DNA of 53,002 bases, taken from positions 1-53,002 of IMG/VR virus record IMGVR_UViG_3300027881_000018; one strand, given 5' to 3'. The DNA comes from a virus. Lineage: Duplodnaviria > Caudoviricetes. Positions 1,804 to 41,917 of this stretch are shown piece after piece. Position numbers and translations under genes: made by a program. Each line of letters starts with the position of its first letter. Within the stretch, counting starts at the first letter, position 1. Under the pieces are notes generated by a model. The model saw nothing but the letters and a program-made list of their open reading frames with translations, ran no database searches and was not told where the DNA came from.

Positions 1804-4800
1804 CTACACCGGGTCGGCCTCGCCATCTAGCGTGACGGTCGGATCGAACAGACCGGTGAGCGGAGCGTCAGGGTCGAACACGCCGTCGAGTCGGCACGTC
1901 AGGTCGAACACGCCGTCCAGCGGCACGACCCGCGCTATGGTTCCGGCCACGCCGACGAAGAAGTCCGTTGCTGGTCGCAGCGCGAATCGGTTGAATGCTA
2001 TCCCCGCAATCGACTTCTCGCCGTCGTTCTCGGGCCGTATGGCCAGCCTTGCCAGTATCGCGCCTGCGGTCGTCTTGGCTGCGGCGTCGGTTGCCCTCAG
2101 CGCCATTGCCGTGCGGGTGGTGCCGATCTTGGCGAACGTGCGCTCGGTACCCGACCTCAGCGCCAGCGACGCGCGGGTCGTGGCGTTGACCACGAATCGC
2201 AGTACGCCCGTCGCCCTGACCGCCACAGATACGGCAGACACGGCCCCGACGATCTTGGCCGCTGCCTGCGCGGGCCTCGTCTGAACCCGAGCGAGCGCGA
2301 CCTGCCCGACCGTCTTGGCACTTGCCGCGGCGTGCCGCACCGCGAGACTCGCGCTCACGGCGGCGTTGAATACCGCCTCTACGATACCCGCCACCGTGGA
2401 TCTCAGCGCCAGTGATGCGACTGCCACGGCCGCGACTGTCTTCTGTGCGGTAGTCGTGGCGCGCACGGCCAGCGAGCTGGCAGCTATTCCGGCGGCGACC
2501 TTCTGCGCGGCCTCAGCCGTCCTCACGGCGAGGCTGGCGGCGCTGATTCCTATGCTCGTCTTGGCGTCTGCCGTGGTAGAGCGCAGCGCGAGGCTGACGG
2601 CCGATATGGCGTTGAATATGGCGGCAGGAATAGCCGCGACCGTCGCTCGCACGGCGAGACTGACCGCAGATACAGCCGCGATCACCTTGGCCGCGGCGGA
2701 GCTCGCCCTTAGTGCCATGCTCGCGCTCGCCGCAGAGGCAGCCGTCTTGGCCGCGTCCGTGCTCTCGCGCATGGCCATGCTGTCAGTCGCCGTGCCGTCT
2801 GCCGCCTTATCGGCTGCCGAGAGTGAGCGCAGGGCAAGCCGGAGGGCGCTGACGAAGCCGTGGACGGTGACGCCCTCAGCAAAAGTACGCACGGCGAGGC
2901 TGACGGCTGCTACCTGAGCCACAGTCTTGGCGGCGGCGTCGCTTGCTCTGAGCGCGAGGCTTGCGGCGGCTGCGGAGGCGGTCGTCTTGGCCGCGCCGGT
3001 AGTCTCACGCAGCGCCACGCTCACGCTCGACACGGCCTGAAAAACAATTCCGGCTACGCTTGCCAGCGTCGAGCGCAGGGCCACGCTGACCGCTGACACC
3101 GAGCTGATCGTCTTGGCCGCCGCGTCACTGGCTCTGGTCACCATCCTCGCGAACGTCGTCCCCGTACTCGTCTTCGCGGCGGCGTCACTCGACCGCAGCG
3201 CCATGCTGTCCAGCGCCACTCCTGCCGCCGTCTTGTCAGATGCCGAGAATGTGCGCAGCGCAAAGCGGGCAACGGCGACGAAACCGTGAACGGTAATGGC
3301 CTCGACTATCGTCCGCAGCGCGACGCTTGCCTGAGCTACCGCAGGTACCGTCTTGGCGGCCTCCGCTGTCGGCCTGAGCGCCAGCCGCATGACGGCGACG
3401 AAGCCGTGCACGGTCGTAAATGCAGCCAGCGCCCTTATGGCGAGGCTGACCGAAGACGCCGACGGCACGGTCTTAGATCCAGCAGAGGCGTGCCGCATGG
3501 CAAAGCGCGCGACGACGACCGCGTTGAATCCGCGTACCCCGTCCTGCAGGGATCGCAGCGCCATGCTCGCGGCGGCTACCGCGTCGGCGACCTTGCTCCC
3601 AGCCGTGCCGGTGAACAGCGCCACCCTTGCTACCGCTGCAGATGCCGTCGTCTTGGCCGACTCGTCGAGGGCGCGAACGCCAAGGCGCACGACCGACACG
3701 GCCTCGATGACCTTTAGCCCTACCGCATCGACGAGGCCGCGCAGGGCCACGCTGGCGGCAGCTATTGAGCCGATAGTCTTGGCAGCCGCCGAGCTGGATC
3801 TCAGGGCCATGCTGTCAGCCGCTATTCCGGCTGCGGCCTTGTCGTAGGACGACGCGGATCTGAGCGCGAACCGAACGACAGCGACGAAGCCGTGAACGGT
3901 GATCGCCTCTGTGATCGTCCGCAGCGCGACCCTCGCCTGAGAGACGGCAGTCGTCGTCTTGGCCGCACCTGAGGTCGGCCTGAGCGCGAGTCTCACTGTC
4001 GCGACGAATCCGTGCGTCGTGGTGAATACGCTCAGGGCGCGCAGCGCCATGCTGATCGAGGCTGTTCCCGGCGCAGTCTTAGCCGCCCCTGCGGCGTGGC
4101 GAAGCGCGAACCGAGCGATTACGACCGCATTAAATCCGCGTACTCCGTCCAGCGTTGATCGCAGCGCGAGGCGGGCGGCAGCGGCTGCATCGGCTACCTT
4201 GGCGGCCGCCGTACTAGTAAACAGCGCGAGCCGAGCGAGGCTGACCTGAGAGACCGTCTTCTGAGCGGCGTCCGTTGACCTGAGCGCCATGCTGTCTGCT
4301 GCCGTGCCTATGGCAGTCTTGTCTGAGGTAAAGAATGGGCGCAGCGCGAGGCGCACGACATTGACGAAGGCGTGGACGCTAATTCCATCGACGAGGGCGC
4401 GCACGGCGAGACTCGCCGCCGCTACCTGAGAGACCGTCTTGGCCGCCGCATCACTGACCCTGAGCGCGAGCCGGGCGATCACCGCCGAGGTCGTCGCCTT
4501 GGCCGAGGCTGTCGTCTCGCGCATGGCCAGACTCACGCTTGAGATCGCGTCGAATACTGCCGCAGCGGCGGCGTCTACGGAGGCCCGCAGCGCCATGCTC
4601 ACAGAGCTAATCGCCGCGGCTACCTTGTTCGCTGCGGTCGAGCTGCGCGGCGCGATCCGGCCTATAACGATGCCGTCCGCGGCCTTATCGTCTGCCGTAG
4701 TAGATCTCAGCGCGAGTCGAGCCCGCACCGCCGCAATGAAGGCCCGGATGCCATCGACCGTAGATCTGAGCGCCATGCTGACACTCGATACGGATGCGCT

Positions 4801-6065: not shown

Positions 6066-7799
6066 TCAGTAGTACCTCGCTCCAATTTTATGCTGCAACA
6101 AAAATCCCGGGTTCATCTTGACGCCGGCGATCAGCACTTTCTCATTGTACTTCTGCACGCCGCCGTCGTCATAGACATAAGCCATGACAATTGGTGGTGG
6201 TGAGTAATAAACCTTCATTTGCATAGAATCAATCTGCGTCTTGCTCACAAATGTCGTGTTATTAGTAGAGCCACAAAAGAAGCCAAAATTTGAGTTAACA
6301 ACATCGTCGCGTCCTATCAATTCAGACCACAAATCAAGCTGCCCACCAAAATCAAATGTTTGCGGGGTTGCTACTATTGAAGGCGATGTCTCGGTCACGC
6401 TGCCATCTGAATCATCGGCTAAAATAAGCTTTATAGTCGTAAAAATGTGACCACCACCAGAGTGATCGGGGGCACTGACATCCTCAAATCTTATTTCTAT
6501 TCCAGTTATAAAGCTGCCTACTGGAATACTAAAATTAAAATTTGACGCCGCTAATCCAGAACTGCTTTCATTCTCGCCTAAAGCACTCGTTGTTTCCGCT
6601 TCGCTACTATCATCAGCCTTGCAATTATCTACATTAGACCAATCGGTATCGGAACCCGCAATCGTCCTGTTGCCAACCATCGTGCCGGGAAATACCCAAC
6701 CAGTATCAGTGGGAGCTGCATTCGAATAAATATTGGCTGATATGTAGTTGACGGTTATACCGTCTATTTCTTCTGTTGGGGTGTCCCATGTAGCGCCGTC
6801 GTCAGTGCTTTTTGTATAATAAAGGTCTTGATCTTCGCCACGAAGATCGCCGCCCGAATATAGTTGATGTAAATCTCCGTTTAACTCGATCCCGCTTAGA
6901 ATTGCGTTTTCCAGGGTGGAGCTACCATACCCCTGCCGATTGTCCGAAAGCGCCTCAATGTCAACACTGTCTAGTGATATGTTGTCCGAGCCATCTTCAG
7001 TCGCCAAGACATGTTTGCGCGGGCTTTTATTAGGACTAAAACTGAATGCGACGGCCATGACAATAATGCGTTGAGTCCCAGCATCATCGTAGGAAAGTGC
7101 GTGGGCCATTCCGGTCATCGTCAAATCACTATCCGCATCAGAAAGTGTAGATACAGTACTTAGCGTGTCGCTTGAATTTAATGTACGTCCTTCGCCATCA
7201 ACCCATCCCGTCGGTGGATCATCGGCAGTACTGATTTGAGTCTGCCAAACGCAATGAACAAAATCATTCGTGCCTAAAACACAGTTGGGGTTGCCGTAAT
7301 GAACATCCCCGCCCGCATCTAATGCAACCGGGCCACCCCAAGAACCAGATGTTCTTACGTTTACATCAACACGCTCTTTGGTATCGCCCATGTTCCGGTC
7401 GGTGTCACCAGCATAGACAACAACTACATCACCGTCTGAGCGGACTGCTATTGATGCCCAAGGGAAGGTAGGTGCATTGGTAGGCGTTTCTATCGCCTGA
7501 TCGACAACCCACGCATCAGTAGCCATGTTGAACGTGTAGTATTCATACGCCGCAGAACTCCACGCGACCATATGAATAACGTCGCCATCCTGAACGGTAG
7601 AAAAACCTAAGATGGTTCCCGCATGAACGGGATTGGTGCCCTGTACTGACCACGAATCCGTAGGGTCTGTGGCTTTGTAAACGTCTAGCTCATCGGCATC
7701 GGTTCGCACGACAGCATAAAACGCGCCGCCACTGGACTTATACGGCGGGTGATGCCCACCAAGACCCGCGGCAGCCAAAACTGTCGTTGGCAACGCCAT
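6066..7799 (-). CDS. Beta-propeller/BNR (sialidase-like) putative receptor-binding protein
   Basis: 577 aa; Asp-box YTKSTDDGATWD; repeated blade-like motifs; visibly AT-richer DNA. Confidence 0.6.
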   Translation of the reverse strand: MALPTTVLAAAGLGGHHPPYKSSGGAFYAVVRTDADELDVYKATDPTDSWSVQGTNPVHAGTILGFSTVQDGDVIHMVAWSSAAYEYYTFNMATDAWVVDQAIETPTNAPTFPWASIAVRSDGDVVVVYAGDTDRNMGDTKERVDVNVRTSGSWGGPVALDAGGDVHYGNPNCVLGTNDFVHCVWQTQISTADDPPTGWVDGEGRTLNSSDTLSTVSTLSDADSDLTMTGMAHALSYDDAGTQRIIVMAVAFSFSPNKSPRKHVLATEDGSDNISLDSVDIEALSDNRQGYGSSTLENAILSGIELNGDLHQLYSGGDLRGEDQDLYYTKSTDDGATWDTPTEEIDGITVNYISANIYSNAAPTDTGWVFPGTMVGNRTIAGSDTDWSNVDNCKADDSSEAETTSALGENESSSGLAASNFNFSIPVGSFITGIEIRFEDVSAPDHSGGGHIFTTIKLILADDSDGSVTETSPSIVATPQTFDFGGQLDLWSELIGRDDVVNSNFGFFCGSTNNTTFVSKTQIDSMQMKVYYSPPPIVMAYVYDDGGVQKYNEKVLIAGVKMNPGFLLQHKIGARYY

Positions 7800-11981: not shown

Positions 11982-12371
11982 CTAACACCGGGGCGCGACC
12001 TTGAGTATGCCCTGATCGAACAGGCGCTCGAGCGTCAGACACAGCGCCTTCATCCTGATCGTCGCGTCCTTGCGGCACTCGTTGTCGATCGCGTGGTGGC
12101 ACACGTCGCAGAGGTGGGCGACCAGCCAGTCGTGGGTTTTCTGCCCGGTGCCAGCGGGCATCCCGTAGAATGATCCGGGCAGGTGCGCGGGCACGACGGT
12201 GTCGCGCTTCATCTCGCGCTCGCACAGGACGCAGAGCTGACCCCTCGCGGCGTCGAGTAGCTCTCGGCTGCGGAACCGCTTTATCTTGGCCTGTGGACCT
12301 GCGGCAATCCGCCGCCGTTTCCCTTGGTTAGCTTGTCGATCTCGCCGACCTGCTTCATGATCTGCCGACAT
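11982..12371 (-). CDS. DUF1364/YbcO-like HNH-type nuclease
   Basis: SRELLDAARGQLCVLC...TVVPAH...GTGQKTHD...AHLCDVCHHAID; start uncertain. Confidence 0.7.
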   Translation of the reverse strand: MSADHEAGRRDRQANQGKRRRIAAGPQAKIKRFRSRELLDAARGQLCVLCEREMKRDTVVPAHLPGSFYGMPAGTGQKTHDWLVAHLCDVCHHAIDNECRKDATIRMKALCLTLERLFDQGILKVAPRC

Positions 12372-12499
12372 ATTTCGTGCGCCTTGTCGATTGGAAAGCT
12401 CAGTGTACCGCCGCCGTGGATGTGCATTATCACGAACCAGCTATTGCCGTGCAGCTCGCGCCCGAAGCTGACCTCCTGCGGGGTGGCAATCTTAGCCAC
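12281..12499 (-). CDS. Hypothetical protein
   Basis: GTG start overlapping upstream stop region; 72 aa. Confidence 0.45.
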   Translation of the reverse strand: MAKIATPQEVSFGRELHGNSWFVIMHIHGGGTLSFPIDKAHEICRQIMKQVGEIDKLTKGNGGGLPQVHRPR

Positions 12500-12959
12500 T
12501 AGCCTTTTCCTCTCCCTGCTCCAACTCGGGCAGCGTGAGCTGGCGCTCGACGACCTCAAGCTCGACCGTGCCCTTGAGCCACTTGTGCAGCTCGACGATC
12601 TCGTTGCCGATCTCAATGCAGCGGATCGAAAGCTCGACCTGACACCTGCCGCCGTGTCTCGGCGTGATGCTTACCTTGCGAATGTCAGCGCCGGTCATCG
12701 TTATTGTTTTCTTACCGACGGTCATCGTCGCCGCCACGTTCTCGATGGTGTGCTGCACCTTTACCGGGTAGGTCTCCTGCAGAATCAGCGCGTCTCCGTG
12801 CCAGTACTCCTCGATGTCGGCTATCGCGGAGTCGAGCCGCTTGGCCTCCACGTCCGCTACGATCAGCTTAACGTCCACGGCCCTGACCAGATCGTCACCG
12901 TGGGCCTCCATCCTCAGGTTGACGTTCTTGATCTCGGCTGCGCTCTTGATTACAAACAT
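12492..12959 (-). CDS. Hypothetical phage protein
   Basis: MFVIKSAAEIKNVNLRMEAHGDD...; GAGGAG RBS. Confidence 0.7.
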   Translation of the reverse strand: MFVIKSAAEIKNVNLRMEAHGDDLVRAVDVKLIVADVEAKRLDSAIADIEEYWHGDALILQETYPVKVQHTIENVAATMTVGKKTITMTGADIRKVSITPRHGGRCQVELSIRCIEIGNEIVELHKWLKGTVELEVVERQLTLPELEQGEEKASG

Positions 12960-17998: not shown

Positions 17999-18120
17999 TG
18001 TCGTTTTGCTCCATGATCGCTAGATTCAAATGCGCCGAACTTCCCAAAACGATGGGCTGTTCGACGCGCACTCATGATCGCTGAGTTCATTTATGCTCGG
18101 AGCTACTGTCAACTTTCGCT

Positions 18121-18230
18121 GCCCGATCTTGCGGCTTCTCCGTTGCCTGCCGCTGCGCTGCGCCGGGTTCCCCTTGTAGCGCGTACTCGACCACCGCAAG
18201 TGGATTCCCGTCCGGTAGGCGAGGTCGGGC
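18121..18230 (+). ncRNA. Putative multi-stem structured RNA (or ssDNA) element between divergent operons
   Basis: Nested helices 18121-30/18221-30, 18145-52/18213-20, 18155-62/18175-82, 18191-94/18200-03; G-U pairs favour + strand. Confidence 0.45.
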
Positions 18231-18426
18231 GCCGACACGTTACAGTTTCTCAAGGACTGGATGTTGTGGCTTGGTGACCGGCACCCGACTCGCCAAATAT
18301 ATACCCCTTTGGGCCCCTTGAAAACACCAGTTTGAGCCGTGGGCGCGGCCCTGTTTTATTTTCCCTGATTTTTTTGTTCTTTGTGTGCTGAATCAATGCG
18401 TTACGAGCTGTTTATTTCGTTGTTTT

Positions 18427-18456
18427 TTGGCCGCTTCAGTGTGGGTGGTATATAAT
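18427..18456 (+). promoter_or_regulatory. Putative sigma70-type early promoter
   Basis: TATAAT at 18451-18456 after a T-rich stretch, ~35 nt before the first + strand gene. Confidence 0.6.
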
Positions 18457-18489
18457 GTCCATTCGGGCAGACAACGACGGAGTGTCATC

Positions 18490-18714
18490 ATGGCAATCAC
18501 CCCCCAAGACGAGCAGGCTTTTAGGCGTTACATCGAGCCATTCGGCGGCGAGCTGATGGAGATTGTGGACGGCCAAAAAATCGTGGTCCGTTTTTCGTCG
18601 ACGCTGAAGATGATGAAGGTCATCGACGGGCTCAACGAGCTTGGCGGCCGACGGTTTGTGTACAACTCGAAAATTGTGGACGAGAAGAACTACCTGACGA
18701 TTTCTGGACGGTAG
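18490..18714 (+). CDS. Hypothetical early protein
   Basis: 74 aa, GGAG RBS. Confidence 0.65.
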   Translation: MAITPQDEQAFRRYIEPFGGELMEIVDGQKIVVRFSSTLKMMKVIDGLNELGGRRFVYNSKIVDEKNYLTISGR

Positions 18715-18756
18715 TTTTTTTTGGCTTGTTTTTTTTTGACGAACAGGAGAGACACC

Positions 18757-19008
18757 ATGGCAAACTTTTACGACACCGTCCGCTGCCCGAGCGCAGTAGT
18801 AAGAGACGACGATGCGCCCTACGTAATTCGTTGTGAAGTATCTGGCGGCGTGACAGGACGCAGGACGCACCTTCTCAAGAACTACGGGTACGTCGTGGAG
18901 TTTGCGACGCGCAAGGCCGCAGAGGCGCGAGCGCGCCAGCTTACCAAGACGACAATGGACAACCCGTACCGAACTGCCAACTTTAGCTACACCGCCGAGA
19001 AGCGGTAA
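18757..19008 (+). CDS. Hypothetical early protein
   Basis: AGGAG RBS, MANFYDT... Confidence 0.7.
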   Translation: MANFYDTVRCPSAVVRDDDAPYVIRCEVSGGVTGRRTHLLKNYGYVVEFATRKAAEARARQLTKTTMDNPYRTANFSYTAEKR

Positions 19009-19017
19009 GGAGAAATC

Positions 19018-19221
19018 ATGACAGCAATAACGGCATCAGTAGTACAGATGGAGATTCGGGAGTTTCACTGGCCGGTGCGCGGACAGTGGATGCTTCGTAT
19101 CTGGCGTGAGGGCCTTCACTGTTCCTCGTTTGCCTACGACACGTACGGCTCTCGCGATGCAGCTCACGACGCCGCGCGGGATGTTGAGGCGACGGTAGTT
19201 CTCGGCAACGCATCGGAGTGA
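19018..19221 (+). CDS. Hypothetical early protein
   Basis: AAGGAG RBS, 67 aa. Confidence 0.65.
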   Translation: MTAITASVVQMEIREFHWPVRGQWMLRIWREGLHCSSFAYDTYGSRDAAHDAARDVEATVVLGNASE

Positions 19222-19261
19222 CCCATGCGGGCGCTGTCAGAGAGCGCCCTGATGGATTCAC
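19218..19261 (+). repeat. 44-nt hairpin element copy 1
   Basis: GTGA CCCAT GC GGGCGCT GTCAGAG AGCGCCC TG ATGG AT TCAC. Confidence 0.9.
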
Positions 19262-19278
19262 ACAGAGGAGTAAATGAG

Positions 19279-19689
19279 ATGTACCGAGACAGCCAATACG
19301 GACTGACGATTGATCTGAGTGGCCCAGACGGGAACGCCTTTATCCTGCTGGGCAAGGTGCGGGAATACGCGAAGCAGTTGGACAAGGACGCGAAGGCCAT
19401 CGTCGAGGAGATGATGGCGGGCGACTACAACGACCTGATCGCGGTTTTCGCTCGCGAGTTTGGCGACGTAATCACCCTGCTGAATGTGCCCGAGAGCGCG
19501 GGCGTCCGACACGACCCTCAGCCCGGCGACGACGAGCCTTTGATAGACGGGCCAGCCGCTGCGCGGCGCTGCGCCGACAACAGCTCACCGTGCGAGCGTC
19601 GCCGCAACAGCGACGACAATACTTGCGAACACTATCCGGACGAGCCTTTTTTCAACGACCCGGACTACGCGAGCGGAGGTGACTCATGA
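19279..19689 (+). CDS. Conserved phage hypothetical protein
   Basis: IDLSGPDGNAFILLG...MMAGDYNDLIAVF motif. Confidence 0.7.
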   Translation: MYRDSQYGLTIDLSGPDGNAFILLGKVREYAKQLDKDAKAIVEEMMAGDYNDLIAVFAREFGDVITLLNVPESAGVRHDPQPGDDEPLIDGPAAARRCADNSSPCERRRNSDDNTCEHYPDEPFFNDPDYASGGDS

Positions 19690-20057
19690 GCAGCGTTGAC
19701 ATCAGAACCGGAACAGAGGGACCGCGGCACGATCCCTACGGGTACGAGGAGCTAACGGTTACGAGCGAGCGTTGCGGCACGGTCACGCTTCACGAGGGGC
19801 TGGGCTGCTGGCTACGCGTCAACGGGGCCTGTGCAAACGAGGGCGATCACGATCGATGCGTCGCACTGTTCGAGCATGTTTGCGGCATCACGGCAAAGGC
19901 GGCACGGCGAGCATACGAGCGCCTTCGCAACCGATGCCAGAACTGCGGCTGCACCGACCAGCGCGCTCTGTCCGGGTATCCCGGCGAGACGCTGTACTTG
20001 TGCGTCCGCTGCGACGCCGTCGTACACGTTGACTTCAACGAGGCGGCAATCAGATAG
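19686..20057 (+). CDS. Hypothetical zinc-ribbon protein
   Basis: CQNCG...GYPGE...CVRC; GGAGG RBS. Confidence 0.65.
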   Translation: MSSVDIRTGTEGPRHDPYGYEELTVTSERCGTVTLHEGLGCWLRVNGACANEGDHDRCVALFEHVCGITAKAARRAYERLRNRCQNCGCTDQRALSGYPGETLYLCVRCDAVVHVDFNEAAIR

Positions 20058-20059
20058 GA

Positions 20060-20103
20060 GCGACCCATGCGGCCATCGTCAGAGGGTGGCCTGATGGAAT
20101 CAC
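20060..20103 (+). repeat. 44-nt hairpin element copy 2
   Basis: GCGA CCCAT GC GGCCATC GTCAGAG GGTGGCC TG ATGG AA TCAC. Confidence 0.9.
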
Positions 20104-20118
20104 ACCAAGGAGAAACTG

Positions 20119-20523
20119 ATGCACACCAAAATCACCAAGATTGACAAGGCGGCCTGCGGGCTGATTCGGGATCGGATCAATAAGGAGCTGGCCGAGGCCG
20201 TAGCGAAACTTGGGCTGACCGCAAAGGCCGGCCACGCCAGCTACGACGACCACAGCGTGACCATCAGGGTCGAGGTTGCGCTGGCTGGCTTCGACAAGGC
20301 GCGGCACGAGTTCGACGCGTACTGCCACATGTACGGGCTCACCCTGCGCGACTACGGCAGCACGTTCCGGCGCGGCAACGCCACGTACAAGATTGTCGGC
20401 CTGAACCCGAATGCACCGAAGTATCCGATCATCGCCGAGCTACCCAGCGGCAAGCGATACAGGTTCACGCTGGACGCGATTAAGACCAGCGATAGCTGGG
20501 AGCGAAACACCGAGCTGGCGTGA
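20119..20523 (+). CDS. Hypothetical early protein
   Basis: 134 aa, AAGGAG RBS. Confidence 0.75.
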   Translation: MHTKITKIDKAACGLIRDRINKELAEAVAKLGLTAKAGHASYDDHSVTIRVEVALAGFDKARHEFDAYCHMYGLTLRDYGSTFRRGNATYKIVGLNPNAPKYPIIAELPSGKRYRFTLDAIKTSDSWERNTELA

Positions 20524-20563
20524 TCCCTGCGAGCGTCGTGACAGGGCGCTCTGAGGGAATCAT
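20520..20563 (+). repeat. 44-nt hairpin element copy 3
   Basis: GTGA TCCCT GC GAGCGTC GTGACAG GGCGCTC TG AGGG AA TCAT. Confidence 0.9.
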
Positions 20564-20585
20564 CCCATGCAACGAGGAGAACATC

Positions 20586-20762
20586 ATGACTGAAAGAACA
20601 CCGATGGAAAAATTGGCCGGCATTAAGACCGAGCTGATCACACTGAAGCCGCGGCTGACGCAGGAGTACCAGCGCAACATTGAGACCTGTATCGGATGGT
20701 GCCGTGATCTTGAGGAACACTTGACGGTGATCGACGCCGAGGACGACGACGATACATCGTGA
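20586..20762 (+). CDS. Small hypothetical protein
   Basis: 58 aa, GAGGAG RBS. Confidence 0.6.
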   Translation: MTERTPMEKLAGIKTELITLKPRLTQEYQRNIETCIGWCRDLEEHLTVIDAEDDDDTS

Positions 20763-20802
20763 TCTCTGCGAGCGCGGCCAGAGCGCGCTCTGAGGGAATC
20801 AT
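20759..20802 (+). repeat. 44-nt hairpin element copy 4
   Basis: GTGA TCTCT GC GAGCGCG GCCAGAG CGCGCTC TG AGGG AA TCAT. Confidence 0.9.
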
Positions 20803-20825
20803 CCCGTAACCAAGAGGAGAAGACC

Positions 20826-21917
20826 ATGTCTAAGGGAATGTCATTGCAGGAACTGGCCGTCGAGCTTGAGCGTCAGAAAAACGCCAAGCGAGACTTCATG
20901 GCCGACACGAAGGAACTGAGGGTAGAGCCGAACGAGGCGAGCCCGACGAACCTGTCGCTGCACATCGGGCAGCAGGATCAGTTCCCGATCAACAAGCACG
21001 CCGTCCGTCAGATCGGGGCGCGTCTCGAGATACCGGCGAAGTACGTTGACCGGCTGGCAGAGAAGCATCCCGACCTTCTGGCGTGGAATGTCAACACGCT
21101 GTTTGAGCGCGAGCCCGAGACGCGAATGGTTCGTGTTCTCGACGACAACGTGCGCGCCTTCCTGTCCGAGCGGTTCCGTCCCCTCGATAACTTTGACTTC
21201 GCCAACGCGGTGCTGCCGAAGCTGATCGAGACCGGCTGCGAGGTCAAGTCTTGTGAGATCACGGAGAGCCGCTTGTACATCAAGGCTTTTCGCCCCGGCG
21301 TCGAGCGCGAGATCAAGAAGCCCGGTACGCACATGGGCGACGGCGGTCACAACGTGATCCACAAGCTGCGACCCGGACTGTGCCTCAGCAACAGCGAGGT
21401 CGGCGCGGGATCGATGGCGGTTCAGCCCGGTGTCGATGAGGAGTGGTGCAGCAACTTGGCGCTGTTCAGCAAGAACGCCATGAAGAAGTACCACGTCGGG
21501 CGCAAGCAGGGCAACGATCAGGAGTCGATGTGGGAGATCTTCACCGACGCCACCAAGCGAGCCAGCGACAAGGCATTCTGGCTACAGGTGGCCGATCTGG
21601 TCGACGCCTCTCTGGACGGCGATCTGTTCGAGCAGATGGTCGCGGAGTGCGAGGCCAAGATGCTCGGCACCGAGATCGTCAAGCCGAGCGTTGCCATCAA
21701 GGAGCTGGCCAACCTCTCCGAGACTGAGGAGGAGGGCATCCTCGCTGAGCTGATCAAGGGCGGCGACCTGTCGCAGTTCGGGATGCAGTACGCCGTAACC
21801 CGGTTCGCGCAGGCGCGCGACGTCAGCTACGACCGGCAGGTCGAGCTTGAGCAACTGGGCGGCAACATCATCGAGCTACCCACCAAGGACTGGGAACGTA
21901 TCGCGCTGGCCGCGTAG
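20826..21917 (+). CDS. DUF932-family protein
   Basis: SLQELAVELERQ...RAFLSERFRPLDN...GLCLSNSEVGAGS...WCSN. Confidence 0.75.
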   Translation: MSKGMSLQELAVELERQKNAKRDFMADTKELRVEPNEASPTNLSLHIGQQDQFPINKHAVRQIGARLEIPAKYVDRLAEKHPDLLAWNVNTLFEREPETRMVRVLDDNVRAFLSERFRPLDNFDFANAVLPKLIETGCEVKSCEITESRLYIKAFRPGVEREIKKPGTHMGDGGHNVIHKLRPGLCLSNSEVGAGSMAVQPGVDEEWCSNLALFSKNAMKKYHVGRKQGNDQESMWEIFTDATKRASDKAFWLQVADLVDASLDGDLFEQMVAECEAKMLGTEIVKPSVAIKELANLSETEEEGILAELIKGGDLSQFGMQYAVTRFAQARDVSYDRQVELEQLGGNIIELPTKDWERIALAA

Positions 21918-21927
21918 AAGAAACGCC

Positions 21928-22131
21928 ATGCTGTTAACACGCAAGCAACGCGAAGCACTGAAGGCCGTATTTGATCGGCAGCCAGTGTACGAGCAGTTCA
22001 CGCGAAACCGGCTAACTTATCGCCAGTTCAGGCGCTTAGTGAAACCGGAAATAGGTGGCTTTGGCGCGGCGATGGTGCCGTGGTGCGGTATGTGGCTAGG
22101 CATCGAAAAAGATGGCCACACCCACAGCTAG
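21928..22131 (+). CDS. Conserved small phage protein
   Basis: TYRQFRR...MVPWCGMWLGIEKDGHTHS. Confidence 0.65.
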   Translation: MLLTRKQREALKAVFDRQPVYEQFTRNRLTYRQFRRLVKPEIGGFGAAMVPWCGMWLGIEKDGHTHS

Positions 22132-22136
22132 AGGAG

Positions 22137-22180
22137 GTGATCCATGCGAGCGTCGTCAGAGGGCGCTCCGGTGGAATCAC
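22137..22180 (+). repeat. 44-nt hairpin element copy 5
   Basis: GTGA TCCAT GC GAGCGTC GTCAGAG GGCGCTC CG GTGG AA TCAC. Confidence 0.9.
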
Positions 22181-22194
22181 ACCGAGGAGATGAC

Positions 22195-22494
22195 ATGAGC
22201 ATTTTGTTCACGCAGTTTTTGTTACCCGACGGTCACACGCGAGAGATGTGGATCAGGCGACCGCGAGCAGTCGAGCTACTGGCCCGTCAGCTCAGGGACG
22301 CGGGACACCGCTTCGAGATCGAGACGCTGACCACTGGCGAAATCTCTATGACGGTCGAGGCCGACGGCGAGGACGGCGCGGAGATCGTGCGCTCTCACCA
22401 GATTTGTGCCAACGGACCGCCAGTTCTCAAAAGCGTCGACACGATGATGGCCGAAGCGTATCTCAACTGGCAGTCGGGCAAGGCGGCCTACTGA
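22195..22494 (+). CDS. Hypothetical protein
   Basis: MSILFTQFLLPDG...; GAGGAG RBS. Confidence 0.7.
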   Translation: MSILFTQFLLPDGHTREMWIRRPRAVELLARQLRDAGHRFEIETLTTGEISMTVEADGEDGAEIVRSHQICANGPPVLKSVDTMMAEAYLNWQSGKAAY

Positions 22495-22823
22495 TGGGGC
22501 ACCGGGAGGGTGAGAACCGCACCGTGCTGCCGTTCGCAGACGACGACGCGCGAATCATCGACGACCGGGAGTGGCCCGAGGACGACCCGTACGAACTTCA
22601 GCGACAGCGCGACATCGACGAGGAGAGAGAGATGAACCACAGGGCCGACATGGAGGCCGCCGAGGCGGCATTTAAGAACTGGCTGCACCGTCAGGGCGAC
22701 CTGAGCGCGAAGTCGATCCATCAGGCGGTGCGGACCGCCTTTTTCGACGGCGCTCAGTTCGGCATCGAGCTGTGCAAAAAGATCAACGACGAGATCATCG
22801 CAGAGGTGAAGGGCGATGACTGA
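22494..22823 (+). CDS. Hypothetical protein
   Basis: TGATG coupling; alternative internal start possible. Confidence 0.5.
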   Translation: MGHREGENRTVLPFADDDARIIDDREWPEDDPYELQRQRDIDEEREMNHRADMEAAEAAFKNWLHRQGDLSAKSIHQAVRTAFFDGAQFGIELCKKINDEIIAEVKGDD

Positions 22824-22915
22824 CGCCGAGTGGCTAGAGATGGCCCTCGTTACCATCGACCGTTGCCCCCGCATGATGGCGAGGGCGGCGGTTCTTTTTG
22901 ACATGAGACAGGAGA

Positions 22916-27102: not shown

Positions 27103-27488
27103 GCCTTGAGCTATCGGAGAAGACGGTCGGCATCTGGGCCGTCGATATGATGAACGGCAGCGACTTCCTCGGCGCCGTGTGGCGCGAGAGTGACAACTAC
27201 GTCATCGAGTATCGCTTCCGGTACTACGAGGACGACAAGGTGTTCGACAGCGAGGACAAGAAGAACTGGTACCGGGCCGAGATCCCGACCGACCGGGCCA
27301 GCGAGGAGGAGTTGATCGACGCTATGAAGGTGGTCGTCGAGGCGCTCTGGAAGAAGAGCGGCGGCAAGCGATACGAGATCCTGATGGGCTCCGGCGGCGT
27401 CGAGGAGATGACGTCCGCCCTGAAGAAGTGGCCGTCGATCTCGATGCTGACCCTGACGCCCGAACAGGCCAAGGAGCGCGGGCTGTGA
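27099..27488 (+). CDS. Hypothetical protein
   Basis: 129 aa, ATGA coupled. Confidence 0.7.
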   Translation: MSLELSEKTVGIWAVDMMNGSDFLGAVWRESDNYVIEYRFRYYEDDKVFDSEDKKNWYRAEIPTDRASEEELIDAMKVVVEALWKKSGGKRYEILMGSGGVEEMTSALKKWPSISMLTLTPEQAKERGL

Positions 27489-28126
27489 AGGTTCTCTGCG
27501 ACCAGCAGCGCACGCCCGAGTGGAACGACGCACGGCGCGGCAAGCTCACGGCCTCGTGCGCCAACCTCGCCCTCGCCAAGCGCGGCGGCAAGGGCCGCCA
27601 GAACTACATCGAGGAGCTTGTCATGGACATCGAGGGCATCCCCGACTTCGGCGACGAGGATAACCCGCCGTGGTACACCGACGGCGTGTACTACGAGTCG
27701 TGGGCTCGCGGCTGGTACTCGTGGACGTTCGATGCAGACGTGCGGCAAACGGGCTTCATAATCCACGACGAGTACCAGTGGCTCGGCTGCTCGCCGGACG
27801 GGATGCTCGACCCGGACGGCGGCATGGAGATCAAGTATCGCAAGTCGCTCAAGACCTTTCAGCAGCACGCGCAGATCGGCAAGGTCGCGGCCGTGATGCC
27901 GCAGGTGCAGACGACCCTGTTCATCACCGGGCGCCGTTGGTGGGACTATGTGAACTACTGGCGCTCGGACGACCACGAGCTTGAGAAGGGCCACGTTCAG
28001 CGGATCGAGCGCGACGACGCGTACATCTACAACACCCTGCTTCCGGCCTTCGTCGGGCTGTGGCGAGAAGTCGAGGGCTTGCTAGAGACACACGAGCGAA
28101 AGTACAATCCAGACCGCGCGCGCTGA
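27485..28126 (+). CDS. YqaJ / lambda-exonuclease-like recombination nuclease
   Basis: QRTPEWNDARRGKLTAS...LGCSPDG...MEIK...PQVQ. Confidence 0.9.
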   Translation: MKVLCDQQRTPEWNDARRGKLTASCANLALAKRGGKGRQNYIEELVMDIEGIPDFGDEDNPPWYTDGVYYESWARGWYSWTFDADVRQTGFIIHDEYQWLGCSPDGMLDPDGGMEIKYRKSLKTFQQHAQIGKVAAVMPQVQTTLFITGRRWWDYVNYWRSDDHELEKGHVQRIERDDAYIYNTLLPAFVGLWREVEGLLETHERKYNPDRAR

Positions 28127-40027: not shown

Positions 40028-40350
40028 CAGGGCCTCTCAAGCGCAAGGATCTCAAGCTCTCGCATCCTGCCGTCCTTGTCCATCGGCGTCACGATGTCAA
40101 AGGTTCTCGCGCCAAGCGTGATCCTGTCGGCGGCCGTGAGCGTGTTGGCAAGGTTGGAGTACCGGATCTTGATGCGATGGCTGACCTCGGCCTTGACCTG
40201 CTGGCTCTCGAATCGCTCGCGCGCGCCAACGGCCTCAACGCTACCCCACGCCGTCATCAGCTCCGTGTACGTCAGGCCGCCCTCGCCGAATGTGTCAAGC
40301 GCGGTGCTGCGACGCTCCAGTGTTAGCAGATGTCGCTTAGTTCCGATCAT
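40027..40350 (-). CDS. Head closure / head-tail adaptor
   Basis: RH.LTLER...D.FG...WGSVEAVGARERF...HRIKIRY. Confidence 0.85.
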   Translation of the reverse strand: MIGTKRHLLTLERRSTALDTFGEGGLTYTELMTAWGSVEAVGARERFESQQVKAEVSHRIKIRYSNLANTLTAADRITLGARTFDIVTPMDKDGRMRELEILALERP

Positions 40351-41132
40351 GTCTCGAGTCCGTCTCGCAGGTGTCGCCACGCCTCGCCGTTCGCAAGCTC
40401 GTCGTGCGTCCACTGTCGATAGGCGAGATTGTACGCCCACTGCTCACGCTCACCCAAGTAGGGTGGATCTGAGACTTTGCGCGAGGTGACCGGCCACGCC
40501 ATCGAGCCTCGATTTATGGCGACCGTCGGCACGCCGAGACAGACCGACTCAAGCGCAGCCGTACTCGACCACGTGACGCACATCGCCGCGTCTCTGAGAG
40601 ATTGTGACAACGGGCCCATCTCGTCGGCCATCAGCGGGTGCGGTCGGTAGATGCTGTTCAGTTTCATGTCAGGCTCGGCGTCGTGCAGCGCAGCTACCCA
40701 CCACCTGCGATTACCGGGAGACACGGAGTCGCCGGGATGCTGGTCGCAGATCAGGATGTAGTTGCCGCCGGTTCTCCACGGCCGCAGCTTGACGCCGATG
40801 GCCTCCCACCTGTCTGGTGGACAGTCGAGCGGTCCCGGATCAGCGCAACCGTGCAGCCCGTTCCACCCGACTGACACGAACCGCAGGCGATCCTTGACGT
40901 AGTCGCCCGACCGTCCGTTGATGTATCCGGCCTCAAGAATCAGCCTCGGCTTGTCGCGCAGCTCTGCGGGAACCTTGTCTCCCCACCACGCGACGAAGTC
41001 GGCCTGCTCTGCGCTCGCTGTGCCGGGACTGATGTCGATGTGTACGCCGTGTCTTGCCAGACCGGAGCCGAGCGCGATCATTGCGTCGAGCTGATGCGCC
41101 GCGCGCGACTCGTAGTGCAGGAACGCTCTCAT
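40347..41132 (-). CDS. GT-B-like glycosyltransferase (capsule-synthesis KpsC/S-like), paralog 2
   Basis: ILEAGY...RPHP...VTWSSTAALESVCLGVP...LAYRQWT. Confidence 0.6.
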   Translation of the reverse strand: MRAFLHYESRAAHQLDAMIALGSGLARHGVHIDISPGTASAEQADFVAWWGDKVPAELRDKPRLILEAGYINGRSGDYVKDRLRFVSVGWNGLHGCADPGPLDCPPDRWEAIGVKLRPWRTGGNYILICDQHPGDSVSPGNRRWWVAALHDAEPDMKLNSIYRPHPLMADEMGPLSQSLRDAAMCVTWSSTAALESVCLGVPTVAINRGSMAWPVTSRKVSDPPYLGEREQWAYNLAYRQWTHDELANGEAWRHLRDGLET

Positions 41133-41917
41133 CCCAACCCTCTCTGAATGTGTGGCCACGCCGTGCCGTCGGCCAGCTCTTCCATAGTCCACTGTCGATA
41201 CGCGAGCCTGTTTGCCCACGTTGTTCGATCGCCGACGTATGGCTCATCCGAGAGCAGCGGTCTCGTTACTGGCGCAGCAATCGATCCGGGGCCAAGCGTA
41301 TAGGTAGGCACGCCCGCGATCACGGCCTCCACCGCTGCTGTCGAGCACCACGTGACAGCAAACAGTGCGTTGGACAGATCCTCTGCCAGTGTGCGCTCGT
41401 TTCGGTAGTAGCTTGGGTGAGGCCGCCTGTGAAACGTCCACTGACGTCGCTCGCACTCGCGCTTTATATCTCGACGGAACTTCCCGACGTCCGGCGCTGC
41501 CCTGTCTCCTACGTGCTGTTCCAGCAGCAGCACGTACTCGCCGGTCAGCTTCCAAGGCTTCAGCTCAACGCCGAACGCGTTCCACCGCTCGCCGCATATT
41601 TCTTTCGGCCATGCCCAGTCAGACAGTCCGTGCCGCTTATTCCACGACGCAGAGATGAAGCGCATTCGATTCTCATTGTAATTGTCGCCGCTGCCGTTGA
41701 TGTACCCGCACTCTAGGATCAGGTGCGGTACGCGAGAGTGCGGCACTTCCTTGTCGCCCCAAGTCACGACGAAGTCGTCGTCTGGACGAGGCGAGGCCGG
41801 GGCCGATTTTACCCTAGCCTCGATTCCGCACAGCCCCATGCCGTCTGCCAAGGCGCACATCGCGTCGCGCTGATGGTCGTAGTGCGGACCGCTCTTGGCT
41901 GCGAGCAGCGCCTTCAC
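41129..41917 (-). CDS. GT-B-like glycosyltransferase (capsule-synthesis KpsC/S-like), paralog 1
   Basis: ILECGY...RPHP...VTWCSTAAVEAVIAGVP...LAYRQWT; GTGA coupling. Confidence 0.6.
   Translation of the reverse strand: MKALLAAKSGPHYDHQRDAMCALADGMGLCGIEARVKSAPASPRPDDDFVVTWGDKEVPHSRVPHLILECGYINGSGDNYNENRMRFISASWNKRHGLSDWAWPKEICGERWNAFGVELKPWKLTGEYVLLLEQHVGDRAAPDVGKFRRDIKRECERRQWTFHRRPHPSYYRNERTLAEDLSNALFAVTWCSTAAVEAVIAGVPTYTLGPGSIAAPVTRPLLSDEPYVGDRTTWANRLAYRQWTMEELADGTAWPHIQRGLG

Follow-up and report, generated by a model that had tools for sequence, protein, structure and literature searches.

Gene organization of the early segment

The window, i.e., the complete stretch of 53,002 nt from an uncultivated phage that was analyzed, contains a rightward early segment of eleven small ORFs, which are our own calls from the ORF lists. 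Two of the eleven ORFs matched PHROG families (phrog_1933 and phrog_1362), both of unknown function, and none matched a Pfam family. The segment comprises the following features:

18427..18456, + strand: sigma-70-like promoter candidate, TTGGCC, 18 nt, TATAAT (10/12; consensus match only)
18490..22823, + strand: eleven small early ORFs
18490-18714, 18757-19008, 19018-19221, + strand: early ORFs 1-3
19279-19689, 19686-20057, + strand: early ORFs 4 and 5
20119-20523, 20586-20762, + strand: early ORFs 6 and 7
20826-21917, 21928-22131, + strand: early ORFs 8 and 9
22195-22494, 22494-22823, + strand: early ORFs 10 and 11
22858..22901, + strand: terminator-like hairpin, 14 pairs followed by UUCUUUUU (putative function)

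The promoter candidate precedes the gene that opens the rightward operon (ATG 18490). The promoter scan yielded + strand sites only at 18427, 25635, 28079, and 28651, and none in the region 19200-22200. The terminator-like hairpin sits in a 92-nt gap after the ORF 22494-22823, and the 111-nt stretch that contains it has a predicted folding energy of -43.2 kcal/mol (z -3.8). The two sites at 18427 and 22858 are the probable limits of a transcription unit.

A family of structured 44-nt repeats

An earlier note on this DNA had described five hairpins of 44 nt at 19218, 20060, 20520, 20759, and 22137, and both the coordinates and the proposed consensus were confirmed. A repeat search of the window unites them in one five-copy family with spacings of 842, 460, 239, and 1378 nt, and all five lie between the promoter-like site at 18427 and the terminator-like hairpin at 22858, which closes the segment:

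19218..19261, + strand: hairpin copy 1, -23.1 kcal/mol, z -4.33; covariance model 70.1 bits
20060..20103, + strand: hairpin copy 2, -18.9 kcal/mol; 67.2 bits; outer stem with one C/A mismatch
20520..20563, + strand: hairpin copy 3, -24.0 kcal/mol; 67.3 bits; loop GUGACAG
20759..20802, + strand: hairpin copy 4, -22.6 kcal/mol; 66.9 bits; loop GCCAGAG
22137..22180, + strand: hairpin copy 5, -23.0 kcal/mol; 69.7 bits

The common fold, found in 5/5 copies, consists of 4 bp, a 1x2 loop, 4 bp, a 2x2 loop, 7 bp, and a 7-nt apical loop, and the ends read GYGA/TCAY. Folded singly, each copy adopts ((((.((((..(((((((.......)))))))..))))..)))) or a near variant, with energies of -18.9 to -24.0 kcal/mol and z values of -2.2 to -4.3. 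The reverse complement folds worse than the + strand RNA (mean of -17.4 versus -22.3 kcal/mol), and all seven wobble cells are G-U or U-G on the + strand, as had been claimed in favor of a structure in the mRNA. As single-stranded DNA the hairpin fold is weak (-7.1 to -12.5 kcal/mol, z -0.55 to -4.1).

That the arms differ among the copies and nevertheless stay paired is borne out by the statistics. Of the 75 pair cells of the five copies 98.7% hold standard pairs, compared to an average of 87.7% in shuffles, and the observed value was reached by 0/500 shuffles; the sole unpaired cell is C2/A43 of copy 2. Double-sided changes occur at 5/15 pairs, which was reached by 1/500 shuffles, and the covariation score of the five copies was reached by 0/500. 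When the 3' partners were slid by 1-3 columns, pairing fell to 35-48%. Addition of a sixth copy, from a 1.8-kb metagenome contig (L017, see below), raised the fraction to 98.9% of 90 cells. The family thus consists of six copies from two genomes, and the copies are not fully independent because copies in the same genome can exchange sequence. The pattern of substitutions indicates that the hairpin structure is under selection.

Both internal loops (1x2 and 2x2) are present in 6/6 copies, and 23 of the 44 columns are invariant across six copies and two phages. The apical loop occurs in only three variants (GUCAGAG, GUGACAG, GCCAGAG). A conserved 7-nt loop and 2x2 internal loop had been proposed; their presence in 6/6 copies holds, whereas their special conservation is weaker than stated, with 6/14 unpaired columns varying versus 15/30 paired columns.

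A covariance model was built from the five window copies and used to scan all 53,002 bases on both strands with filters off. The five copies scored 66.9-70.1 bits, and the next best place in the 53-kb record only 11.6 bits. The assumption that the RNA motif is undescribed also stood: none of the 4227 families of Rfam 15 matched the whole window at gathering thresholds, and in E-value mode the region 19150-22260 gave two matches with E above 3, neither of them on a hairpin. These results support the view that the hairpin is an uncatalogued, structured element of the sense strand.

The hairpins mark the long gene junctions

The five hairpins fill five gaps of 57-63 nt and group the eleven early ORFs in the pattern 3+2+1+1+2+2. 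At the remaining junctions these ORFs either overlap or are separated by 9, 10, or 42 nt. Each hairpin starts on the upstream stop codon or 2-5 nt past it, and is followed after 3-11 nt by the ribosome binding site (RBS) of the next gene:

Copy 1: upstream ORF 19018-19221, TGA = hairpin positions 2-4; RBS GAGGAG 19265-19270, ATG 19279 (19265..19281, + strand), 3 nt past the hairpin
Copy 2: upstream ORF 19686-20057, TAG 2 nt before the hairpin; RBS AAGGAG 20107-20112, ATG 20119 (20107..20121, + strand), 3 nt past the hairpin
Copy 3: upstream ORF 20119-20523, TGA = hairpin positions 2-4; RBS GAGGAG 20574-20579, ATG 20586 (20574..20588, + strand), 10 nt past the hairpin
Copy 4: upstream ORF 20586-20762, TGA = hairpin positions 2-4; RBS GAGGAG 20814-20819, ATG 20826 (20814..20828, + strand), 11 nt past the hairpin
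Copy 5: upstream ORF 21928-22131, TAG 5 nt before the hairpin; RBS GAGGAG 22184-22189, ATG 22195 (22184..22197, + strand), 3 nt past the hairpin

The use of a built-in TGA as stop codon by three copies, reported in the earlier note, therefore applies to copies 1, 3, and 4, and the AGGAG said to follow every hairpin is part of GAGGAG at four copies and of AAGGAG at one; an AGGAGG is found immediately 3' of copy 5. In the centroid fold the RBS hexamer is unpaired at 6/6 junctions. No T-run (U-run in the RNA) and no terminator-like site was found at any of the five copies, and because none has a U-run the hairpins are not intrinsic terminators.

Occurrence outside of this phage

The covariance model detected one copy outside of the record, on the 1.8-kb contig L017, which stems from a distant relative (66.4 bits). 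Fold and stop/RBS context are retained in this copy, and its UGA is used as a real stop. It shares 32-39 of 44 nt with the window copies, which share 28-37 of 44 nt with one another. In blastn, hairpin plus RBS are 80-84% identical over 55-62 nt for 4/5 copies, whereas the four syntenic proteins of the two phages are only 36-45% identical. Copy 3 and L017 do not differ at positions 9-35, which cover the topmost pair of the middle stem, the 2x2 internal loop, and the upper stem with its loop. Taken as a whole, the L017 hairpin is a mosaic that combines the lower stems of copy 1 with the apical part (upper stem plus loop) of copy 3. Judged from these comparisons, the hairpin is conserved beyond the divergence of the syntenic genes. 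L017 keeps the window ORFs 1, 2, 4, and 11 in order, with other genes between them, and its hairpin is located at a different junction; the first two early genes are common to both hairpin-bearing phages.

Other relatives share single genes without the hairpin, namely those for a 363-aa protein (66-70% identity), the terminase (up to 84%), and a 289-aa protein (45%), and therefore the element is dispensable for those genes. Four other contigs are homologous to the window only in the 363-aa gene, which lies downstream of hairpin 4, and in one of them (L007) a repeated promoter module precedes this gene instead. A strict pattern search of 185,579 species genomes gave three matches, none above 14.7 bits, and the covariance model gave none in 5 + 151 genomes, a sample that may miss the host.

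A probable junction module in the early mRNA

The hairpins very probably represent a functional RNA-level element of gene junctions. They would be cis-acting elements in the sense mRNA of the first rightward transcription unit, from 18427 to 22858, and each module would comprise a built-in UGA at the 5' base, which serves as a real stop in 3/5 copies and in L017, the irregular 44-nt hairpin, 3-11 unpaired nt, and a GAGGAG or AAGGAG Shine-Dalgarno sequence with the next start codon. The placement at individual junctions together with a layout similar to that in T7 favors processing or stabilization, and we lean, tentatively, toward the interpretation that the hairpins process, stabilize, or insulate the early cistrons in a T7-like manner. 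A host double-strand-specific endonuclease of the RNase III type, and/or 3' exonucleases that are stopped by the hairpin, would act at the junctions and convert the early transcript of about 4.4 kb into six stable segments, each carrying 1-3 genes. Every upstream segment would keep a protective hairpin at its 3' end, and every downstream RBS would be presented in a fixed, unstructured context, independent of the neighboring gene. Cleavage, stabilization, and insulation are functions that we infer by analogy. The cis-regulatory RNA proposed in the earlier note holds up as a structured sense-strand element, but sequence analysis cannot choose among its suggested functions as a nuclease site, an antitermination element, a protein binding site, or a recombination hub.

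The geometry of the helix may count against the RNase III-type reading. T7-type sites call for a quasi-continuous helix of about two turns, and the hairpins have 15 pairs plus the 1x2 and 2x2 internal loops, or about 18-19 stacked layers; 2-5 extra flanking pairs, predicted in some copies, are not conserved. RNase III has little sequence requirement, and because positions 9-35 are identical in copy 3 and L017 despite proteins at 36-45% identity, a sequence-specific reader would fit this feature better.

Comparison with known systems

The early transcript of T7 contains five RNase III sites, e.g., R1.1 (PMC4858673; PMC1540722). R1.1 RNA is 60 nt long and gives products of 47 and 13 nt (PMC4858673), and internal loops can confine RNase III to one cut, leaving a protective 3' hairpin (PMC1540722). 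The resemblance includes the number of five sites, irregular hairpins with internal loops in intercistronic gaps of one polycistronic early transcript (presumed in the case of our phage), the predicted mono- and dicistronic pieces, and a hairpin that would remain at the 3' end of the upstream message with the next RBS close behind. Internal loops of the kind that can restrict cutting to one strand are present in 6/6 copies and may have this effect. Unlike the T7 sites, to which no sequence relationship is known, the hairpins have a shorter helix than R1.1 (15 bp in 44 nt), a stop codon built into the base, and strong sequence conservation across phages. Most likely, judged by analogy, a junction job known from T7 is performed here by a hairpin family that has not yet been catalogued.

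The extended start-associated sequences (ESAS) of Cluster K mycobacteriophages are imperfect inverted repeats with 17-bp arms and a spacer of mostly 4-13 bp, followed immediately by a conserved motif that contains the RBS, and by the start codon; they precede many genes in one orientation, and their function is unknown, with a translational role being suspected (PMC3203893). The architecture is alike: an inverted repeat 5' of the RBS, repeated in one orientation, in our case with 18-nt arms, a 7-nt loop, and 3-11 nt to the RBS. However, the ESAS arms hold a consensus per phage group, whereas the arms of the hairpins covary copy by copy, and the 13-nt SAS GGGATAGGAGCCC given in that report (PMC3203893) is absent upstream of the starts in our phage, where by inspection only AGGAG is common. 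The host clade is also different, and the new element is tied to the upstream stop codon.

Promoter-early stem-loops (PeSLs) of T4-type phages are repeated modules between small early genes of mostly unknown function. Extending from the upstream stop codon to the Shine-Dalgarno sequence and start codon, they include a stem-loop in which G-T pairs occur, and they have been linked to gene shuffling; their defining features are a strong sigma-70 promoter and a stem-loop that acts as terminator or attenuator (PMC2839356; PMC4122927). The stop-to-start intergenic modules with a stem-loop between small early genes correspond. PeSL cassettes would mark endpoints of gene insertions, deletions, or replacements between related phages; in the 1.8 kb of L017, the only comparison, gene content differs between the shared genes. 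Two features of a PeSL cassette are lacking in our phage: there is no + strand promoter site in 19200-22200, and neither a T-run nor a terminator-like site was found at any copy.

REP/BIME elements are imperfect palindromes of about 35-45 nt inside bacterial operons, which are transcribed with the mRNA, can protect upstream cistrons from 3' decay, and are present at very high copy number in the host chromosome. The hairpins are likewise intra-operon imperfect palindromes that would be transcribed with the mRNA, but unlike REPs they were found in no bacterial genome searched.

Alternative explanations

In view of the high sequence conservation across phages, a specific binding protein still has to be considered. 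A sequence-specific RNA-binding protein of phage or host could read the apical and internal loops and time or tune downstream translation, or protect the message. The 23 invariant columns, the identity at positions 9-35, the mere three loop variants, the distance of 3-11 nt to the RBS, at which a bound protein could affect entry of the 30S subunit, and the presence of the first two early genes in both hairpin-bearing phages are in line with such an operator. Still, we consider it unlikely: the search for a candidate protein was negative, with no RNA-binding Pfam family in the 23 rightward ORFs tested, the only resemblance of the Atlas model for the first early protein is to a SecD head subdomain, variation is about as frequent in unpaired as in paired columns, and the stem covaries among copies of the same genome, so that any reader must tolerate stem changes. 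The recombination hub of the earlier note receives indirect support from the mosaic copies and the differing gene content between the hairpin-bearing relatives. The repeats would then serve as DNA-level homology patches for gain, loss, and swapping of small early genes, with hairpin and RBS carried along as an expression adaptor, which is compatible with an RNA function. The L017 hairpin at another junction among different genes, the four contigs with homology limited to the 363-aa gene, the promoter module in its place in L007, and the PeSL precedent of regulatory repeats that mediate shuffling (PMC2839356) would fit. However, compensatory base changes are not needed for homology alone, and therefore a structural function must exist too; no recombination endpoint was mapped to a hairpin with the one hairpin-bearing relative, and on its right side the shared 363-aa gene ends at an ordinary junction of 10 nt that lacks a hairpin. 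As the main explanation this is quite unlikely.

Very unlikely is a termination-reinitiation relay, in which ribosomes that terminate on the UGA within GUGA would reinitiate on the GUG that overlaps it and translate a linker ORF of 16-21 codons through the hairpin to a stop at or beside the next AUG, coupling translation across the 60-nt gap. In 6/6 copies no stop codon interrupts the frame from hairpin position 1 within the hairpin. Copies 1 and 5 have the linker stop 1 nt ahead of the following AUG, in copy 2 the two overlap, in L017 the linker stop overlaps the second AUG, and the frame of copy 3 continues directly into the next gene. For copies 1, 2, and 5, a stop of this kind is produced by 3-6% of spacer shuffles, but copies 1 and 5 have a common ancestry in the spacer, copy 3 and L017 are uninformative (null 0.83 and 1.0), and the stop-position criterion was picked post hoc. 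Moreover, the linker stop of copy 4 lies 16 nt before the AUG, copy 2 begins with GCG instead of GUG, the downstream genes own strong, free RBSs, and the linker peptide is not conserved. A processive antitermination RNA of the HK022 put or lambda nut type would enable RNA polymerase to pass the terminator-like hairpin at 22858 and to transcribe the recombination and replication genes beyond it. The copies, all of them conserved structured RNAs on the nascent transcript, are located downstream of the promoter-like site and ahead of the first terminator-like structure. There are, however, five of them, and each long intercistronic gap has its own copy, linked to a stop codon and RBS, which argues for a per-junction rather than a per-operon job and against this type of element. 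In addition, no Rfam family matched, and a single hairpin differs from the put layout of two hairpins; this reading is highly improbable. A single-stranded-DNA hairpin site, attC- or REP-like, used by a recombinase or transposase hardly comes into consideration. It would agree with the preference for one strand, the conserved mismatches, and the cassette-like gene arrangement. Against it stand the weak DNA fold, the lack of an integrase, Y1 transposase, or other recombinase family among the 23 + 24 + 23 ORFs scanned, with the record being about 70% complete, the hairpin ends GYGA/TCAY and the lack, by inspection, of attC core sites, which speak against an integron attC site, the results in the bacterial genomes (three matches under 15 bits, none with the model), which speak against a host repeat in the genomes searched, and the link to stop codon and RBS, which points to RNA.

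A further reading is that of a self-contained universal gene joint, made of a stop codon, a folded insulator that is read by a dedicated phage or host factor, and an RBS, which would serve both the plugging-in and the exchange of cassettes. Such a joint is speculative and quite doubtful at present. If it should be true, any small gene could be inserted by this phage lineage into the early operon, expressed there, and exchanged as a cassette, and the hairpin-based cassette system would be a functional parallel to integrons that operates via mRNA.

Organization of the early region

The record is linear, 53,002 bp long and about 70% complete (IMG/VR), and its source is an uncultivated siphovirus. 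The minus strand carries HK97-type head, portal, terminase, tape-measure and tail genes, and a block of small rightward genes covers about 10 kb, from 18.5 to 28.1 kb. The gene calls of this block are our own and were derived from ORF lists and RBS positions.

Features of the rightward block and its upstream region
18324-18296, minus strand: promoter-like site, divergent to the following one; both are promoter-like only
18427-18456, plus strand: sigma-70-like promoter site (TTGGCC, 18 nt, TATAAT) ahead of the first ORF, from the promoter scan
18490, plus strand: start ATG of the first early ORF, from the ORF list
19218, 20060, 20520, 20759 and 22137, plus strand: 44-nt hairpin copies 1 to 5
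22858-22901, plus strand: terminator-like hairpin, 14 pairs and then UUCUUUUU, in the 92-nt gap after the eleventh ORF and ahead of a 289-aa gene
27428-28126, rightward: YqaJ-type exonuclease, from the Pfam/PHROG scan

Eleven ORFs extend from the ATG at 18490 to position 22823. Neighboring ORFs overlap or are separated by 9, 10 or 42 nt, except at five long gaps of 57, 61, 62, 63 and 63 nt, each of which is filled by one hairpin, and the ORFs are thereby split into groups of 3+2+1+1+2+2. No Pfam family was found in the 11 early ORFs (23 rightward ORFs were tested), and two of them match PHROGs of unknown function. The 111-nt stretch that contains the terminator-like hairpin folds with -43.2 kcal/mol (z -3.8), and the hairpin is absent from the list of the consensus terminator scan. 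Judging from its predicted fold, it looks like an intrinsic terminator or attenuator, and it appears to mark the boundary between an immediate-early segment and the genes for recombination and replication. Beyond it most ORFs overlap or are at most 30 nt apart, and the model search of the record retrieved no further copies of the 44-nt hairpin there. Because the long gaps are all filled by hairpins and the terminator-like hairpin closes the segment, the hairpins seem to punctuate a single early transcription unit of about 4.4 kb.

Two side observations concern other parts of the window. In a genome with about 60% G+C, the 42-nt gap that separates the first two early ORFs (18715-18756) is U-rich and includes runs of 8 and 9 T; a similar T-rich repeat is present at 18353-18375. 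Hypermodification- or glycosylation-type genes are located among the head and packaging genes (40347-41219, 43079-43747, 49487-50980 and 51950-52951); they include a TET-associated glycosyltransferase (PF20691, 3.6e-39), a radical SAM and SPASM protein, a DUF6716 putative glycosyltransferase and a sialyltransferase-like PHROG.

Fold and covariation of the hairpin

The earlier note had placed five 44-nt repeats in this region. Inspection of the window bore this out, and a repeat search recovered the five-copy family with spacings of 842, 460, 239 and 1378 nt. The ungapped alignment of the five copies contains 23 invariant columns out of 44. Folding of each copy alone yielded a stem I of 4 bp, a 1x2 loop, a stem II of 4 bp, a 2x2 loop, a stem III of 7 bp and a 7-nt loop, with energies of -18.9 to -24.0 kcal/mol and z-scores of -2.2 to -4.3. 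The arms were said to differ and yet to stay paired, and indeed 98.7% of the 75 pair cells (base-pair positions times copies) are standard pairs in the five copies. The shuffle mean was 87.7%, and none of 500 shuffles reached the observed value. Double-sided changes occur in 5 of the 15 pairs, which was matched by 1/500 shuffles, and the covariation score is 0.493 versus 0.255 in shuffles (0/500). When the partners were slid by 1-3 columns, pairing was merely 35-48%.

It had been argued that the non-Watson-Crick pairs are G-U on the plus strand and that this points to an mRNA structure. The first is true of all seven wobble cells, and the second agrees with the fold energies, since the plus strand has a mean of -22.3 kcal/mol and the reverse complement is weaker (-17.4 kcal/mol). 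Folding with DNA parameters is weak (-7.1 to -12.5 kcal/mol). A covariance model built from the five copies scores them with 66.9-70.1 bits, and the next best site in the whole record has 11.6 bits (both strands, filters off). The special conservation of the apical and internal loops was overstated, as 6 of 14 unpaired columns are variable versus 15 of 30 paired ones. The hairpin element is structural, its sense strand folds, and it belongs to the cistron junctions. The observation is confirmed and its interpretation is supported in part only.

Stop codons, ribosome binding sites and junction context

As had been noticed, the upstream stop codon is built into the hairpin in copies 1, 3 and 4 (TGA at positions 2-4). 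In the other two, a TAG stop lies 2 nt (copy 2) and 5 nt (copy 5) upstream. The RBS reported after every copy was also found, namely GAGGAG or AAGGAG at distances of 3, 3, 10, 11 and 3 nt past hairpins 1 to 5, and the start codon follows 14-23 nt downstream of the hairpin. With 100-109 nt of context, the core hairpin is kept in the minimum-energy fold of 6/6 junctions, the sixth being that of a second phage described below, and in none of the six centroid structures is the RBS hexamer paired.

The element is neither a terminator nor a promoter. Neither of the two scans detected a promoter-like or terminator-like site on any of the five hairpins, and the reading as intrinsic terminators was rejected because no copy is followed by a U-run. 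A protein-coding role was also discarded, as the peptides are unconserved in all three frames and two frames contain conserved stops. The frame that continues past the UGA stays open in copies 1 and 4, where it is in phase with the following gene. Stop-codon readthrough of a SECIS-like type was rejected because this frame closes after 5 codons in copy 3 and in the second phage, and copies 2 and 5 use UAG. A kink-turn, a T-loop, an anticodon-stem mimic and a CRISPR-repeat mimic did not fit by eye.

Copies 1, 2 and 5 (19214-19227, 20055-20069 and 22129-22146) have a GGAG, AGGAG or AGGAGG 6 nt before an additional AUG at hairpin positions 8-10. In copies 1 and 5 this AUG shares the frame of the following gene and would add 18 and 17 residues; in copy 2 it is out of frame. 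The AGGAGGUGAUCC of copy 5 offers 12 nt complementary to the usual 3' end of 16S rRNA. Copies 3 and 4 have a CUG instead and lack a Shine-Dalgarno-like site.

A second phage with the hairpin

One further copy was found on L017, a metagenome contig of 1,848 nt from a distant relative. The contig carries homologs of the first, second, fourth and eleventh early ORFs in the order of the window (40, 45, 36 and 39% identity), with other genes interposed between them. Its single hairpin occupies a junction different from those of the window. It opens with GTGA, the TGA of which terminates the upstream ORF, and is followed after 5 nt by AAGGAG and then ATG. When this copy is added, 98.9% of 90 cells are paired. 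It is identical to the window copies at 32-39 of 44 nt, compared to 28-37 of 44 among the window copies themselves, and is a mosaic whose lower stems are those of copy 1 and whose upper stem and loop are those of copy 3. Since copies within one genome are as diverged as those between genomes and all keep the fold, these alignments indicate long-standing selection. Hairpin and RBS are 80-84% identical between window and L017 over 55-62 nt (four copies) and are among the best-conserved DNA stretches of the pair. This high identity beside proteins of 36-45% identity implies selection on the sequence or exchange of the module.

The best-conserved DNA between both phages is a 150-nt stretch at 18081-18229 (78.7% identity). 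It is probably non-coding, because tblastx matches were obtained in all six frames. For the minus strand, RNAalifold of the two sequences predicted 37 pairs and 4 compensatory changes; the corresponding plus-strand values were 38 and 2. No Rfam match was found for the stretch. It may be a leader or a small RNA of the leftward operon.

Distribution of the element

The motif had been proposed to be undescribed, and it has no match in Rfam 15 at gathering thresholds; in E-value mode (E up to 10, hairpin region) nothing was found on the hairpins. Comparison of 6 kb of the window with GenBank phages by blastn gave no match. No more than 46% of a 71-nt hairpin query was covered in phages (8 records, E of at least 2), and no more than 37% in PLSDB plasmids (9 records, E 6).

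Searches for outside copies beyond the chosen genomes were exact-pattern scans. A strict pattern matched 0 loci in IMG/VR, 3 in species genomes and 5 in metagenome contigs, and rescoring with the model left L017 (66.4 bits) as the sole real copy, the other seven scoring at most 15.1 bits. A looser pattern matched 25 viral loci and at least 120 genome loci. Among the matches listed, full pairing (11/11) is confined to the window's own loci and L017; two loci have 10/11 but lack the outer stem, and the rest have 9 or fewer. The literal upper-stem pattern has no match in IMG/VR viral contigs.

Relatives of the window's genes were also searched. Profiles of the first two early proteins found no relatives in viral contigs, and that of the second found none in 401 genomes of the order searched. 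Four viral contigs share the 363-aa protein encoded after hairpin 4 at 66-70% identity; their best hairpin score is 10.8 bits, and they contain no comparable repeat. One of them, L007, carries a 41-nt sigma-70-like module (TTGACT...TATAAT) at 1602-1642 and 4398-4438, the copies of which are 85% identical. One copy lies directly upstream of the 67%-identical 363-aa homolog, and thus the same gene stands behind a different kind of junction module. Terminase relatives were found at 52 viral loci, and 5 of these 52 records were searched whole with the model. A single 17-bit match was rejected, as the upper stem is missing and the region looks coding. The hairpin was not found in L216, a record that shares the terminase and, at 45% identity, the 289-aa protein. 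L216 has blocks of 33-nt periodic repeats at 6671-6975 and 12275-12728 with 12 copies of a 38-nt unit, which probably encode repeat proteins.

Among prophage terminases, the nearest reach no more than 51% identity and reside mostly in Oxalobacteraceae-type and other betaproteobacterial genomes, a weak pointer to the host. A model search of five of the prophage-terminase genomes and 151 genomes of one family found no hairpin; within these genomes, the element does not occur as a host repeat. Only two phage sequences are known to carry it.

Possible functions of the hairpin

We tentatively consider processing, stabilization or insulation of cistrons to be the most likely role of the hairpin, because the layout matches that of the T7 early transcript. 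In both cases five irregular hairpins occupy the gaps of one early polycistronic unit, and here, as in T7, the hairpin directly follows a stop codon and lies just ahead of a free RBS. In T7, a precursor of about 7,000 nt is cleaved by host RNase III at five sites, which yields mono- and dicistronic mRNAs (PMC4858673). Internal loops can confine the cut to a single strand, so that a protective hairpin remains at the 3' end (PMC1540722). Two features count against a plain RNase III site, i.e., the helix of 15 bp plus two internal loops is somewhat short, and the sequence conservation exceeds what such a site needs.

The main rival, which we regard as unlikely, is that a sequence-specific RNA-binding protein reads the hairpin. 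No candidate protein emerged, and Atlas look-ups of the first two early proteins yielded only a SecD-head-like fold and unnamed viral clusters. Rather unlikely, and compatible with an RNA function, is a cassette junction at the DNA level. The mosaic nature of the L017 copy and the different gene content of L017 between the shared genes would fit, as would the four other contigs that share only the 363-aa gene after hairpin 4, which in L007 sits behind a repeated promoter module instead; however, no recombination endpoint could be mapped to a hairpin. The weaker rivals include a termination-reinitiation relay, which seems improbable. In 6/6 copies, no stop interrupts the hairpin in the frame that begins at its first position; this frame ends at or beside the next AUG in four of them and enters the next gene in a fifth, and spacer shuffling gives such a stop in 3-6% of cases each for copies 1, 2 and 5. 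However, only these three copies are informative in this comparison, copies 1 and 5 are related in their spacers, and the criterion was chosen post hoc. An antitermination RNA is quite improbable, and a single-stranded-DNA site is highly improbable.

The hairpin has known functional analogs. Besides the T7 early RNase III sites, which share its layout, two systems come closest. The ESAS/SAS elements of Cluster K mycobacteriophages contain an inverted repeat directly before an RBS motif; as described in PMC3203893, they resemble the window hairpins in architecture and are of unknown function, but the SAS motif is absent from these hairpins. The PeSLs of T4-type phages, as described in PMC2839356, are likewise stop-to-start intergenic modules with a stem-loop and a link to shuffling, whereas on the window hairpins the scans gave no sign of the promoter and terminator functions that define PeSLs. 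A literature search for conserved intergenic stem-loops that recur among the early genes of phages retrieved none. The claim that the hairpin is not in print rests on this search, on the PeSL, T7 RNase III and SAS literature, and on Rfam. At the sequence level the hairpin forms a new family; in kind it is a variant of something partly known and does not open a new category.

Early operons of phages are crowded with small genes that have no known function; many of these act in host takeover or anti-defense. To our knowledge, the individual expression and the exchange of such genes are poorly understood outside T7 and T4. The immediate impact of the hairpin is limited, since its distribution is narrow (two genomes) and no cultured host is available. 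As a compact and strongly covarying element of cistron junctions, with a stop codon of its own and a position just ahead of each RBS, it is a clean and testable example of operon punctuation. Should it prove to be a processing or insulating site, it would add a family to this class and could also be used as a small natural insulator part; should a specific protein read it, the two would form a new RNA-protein pair.
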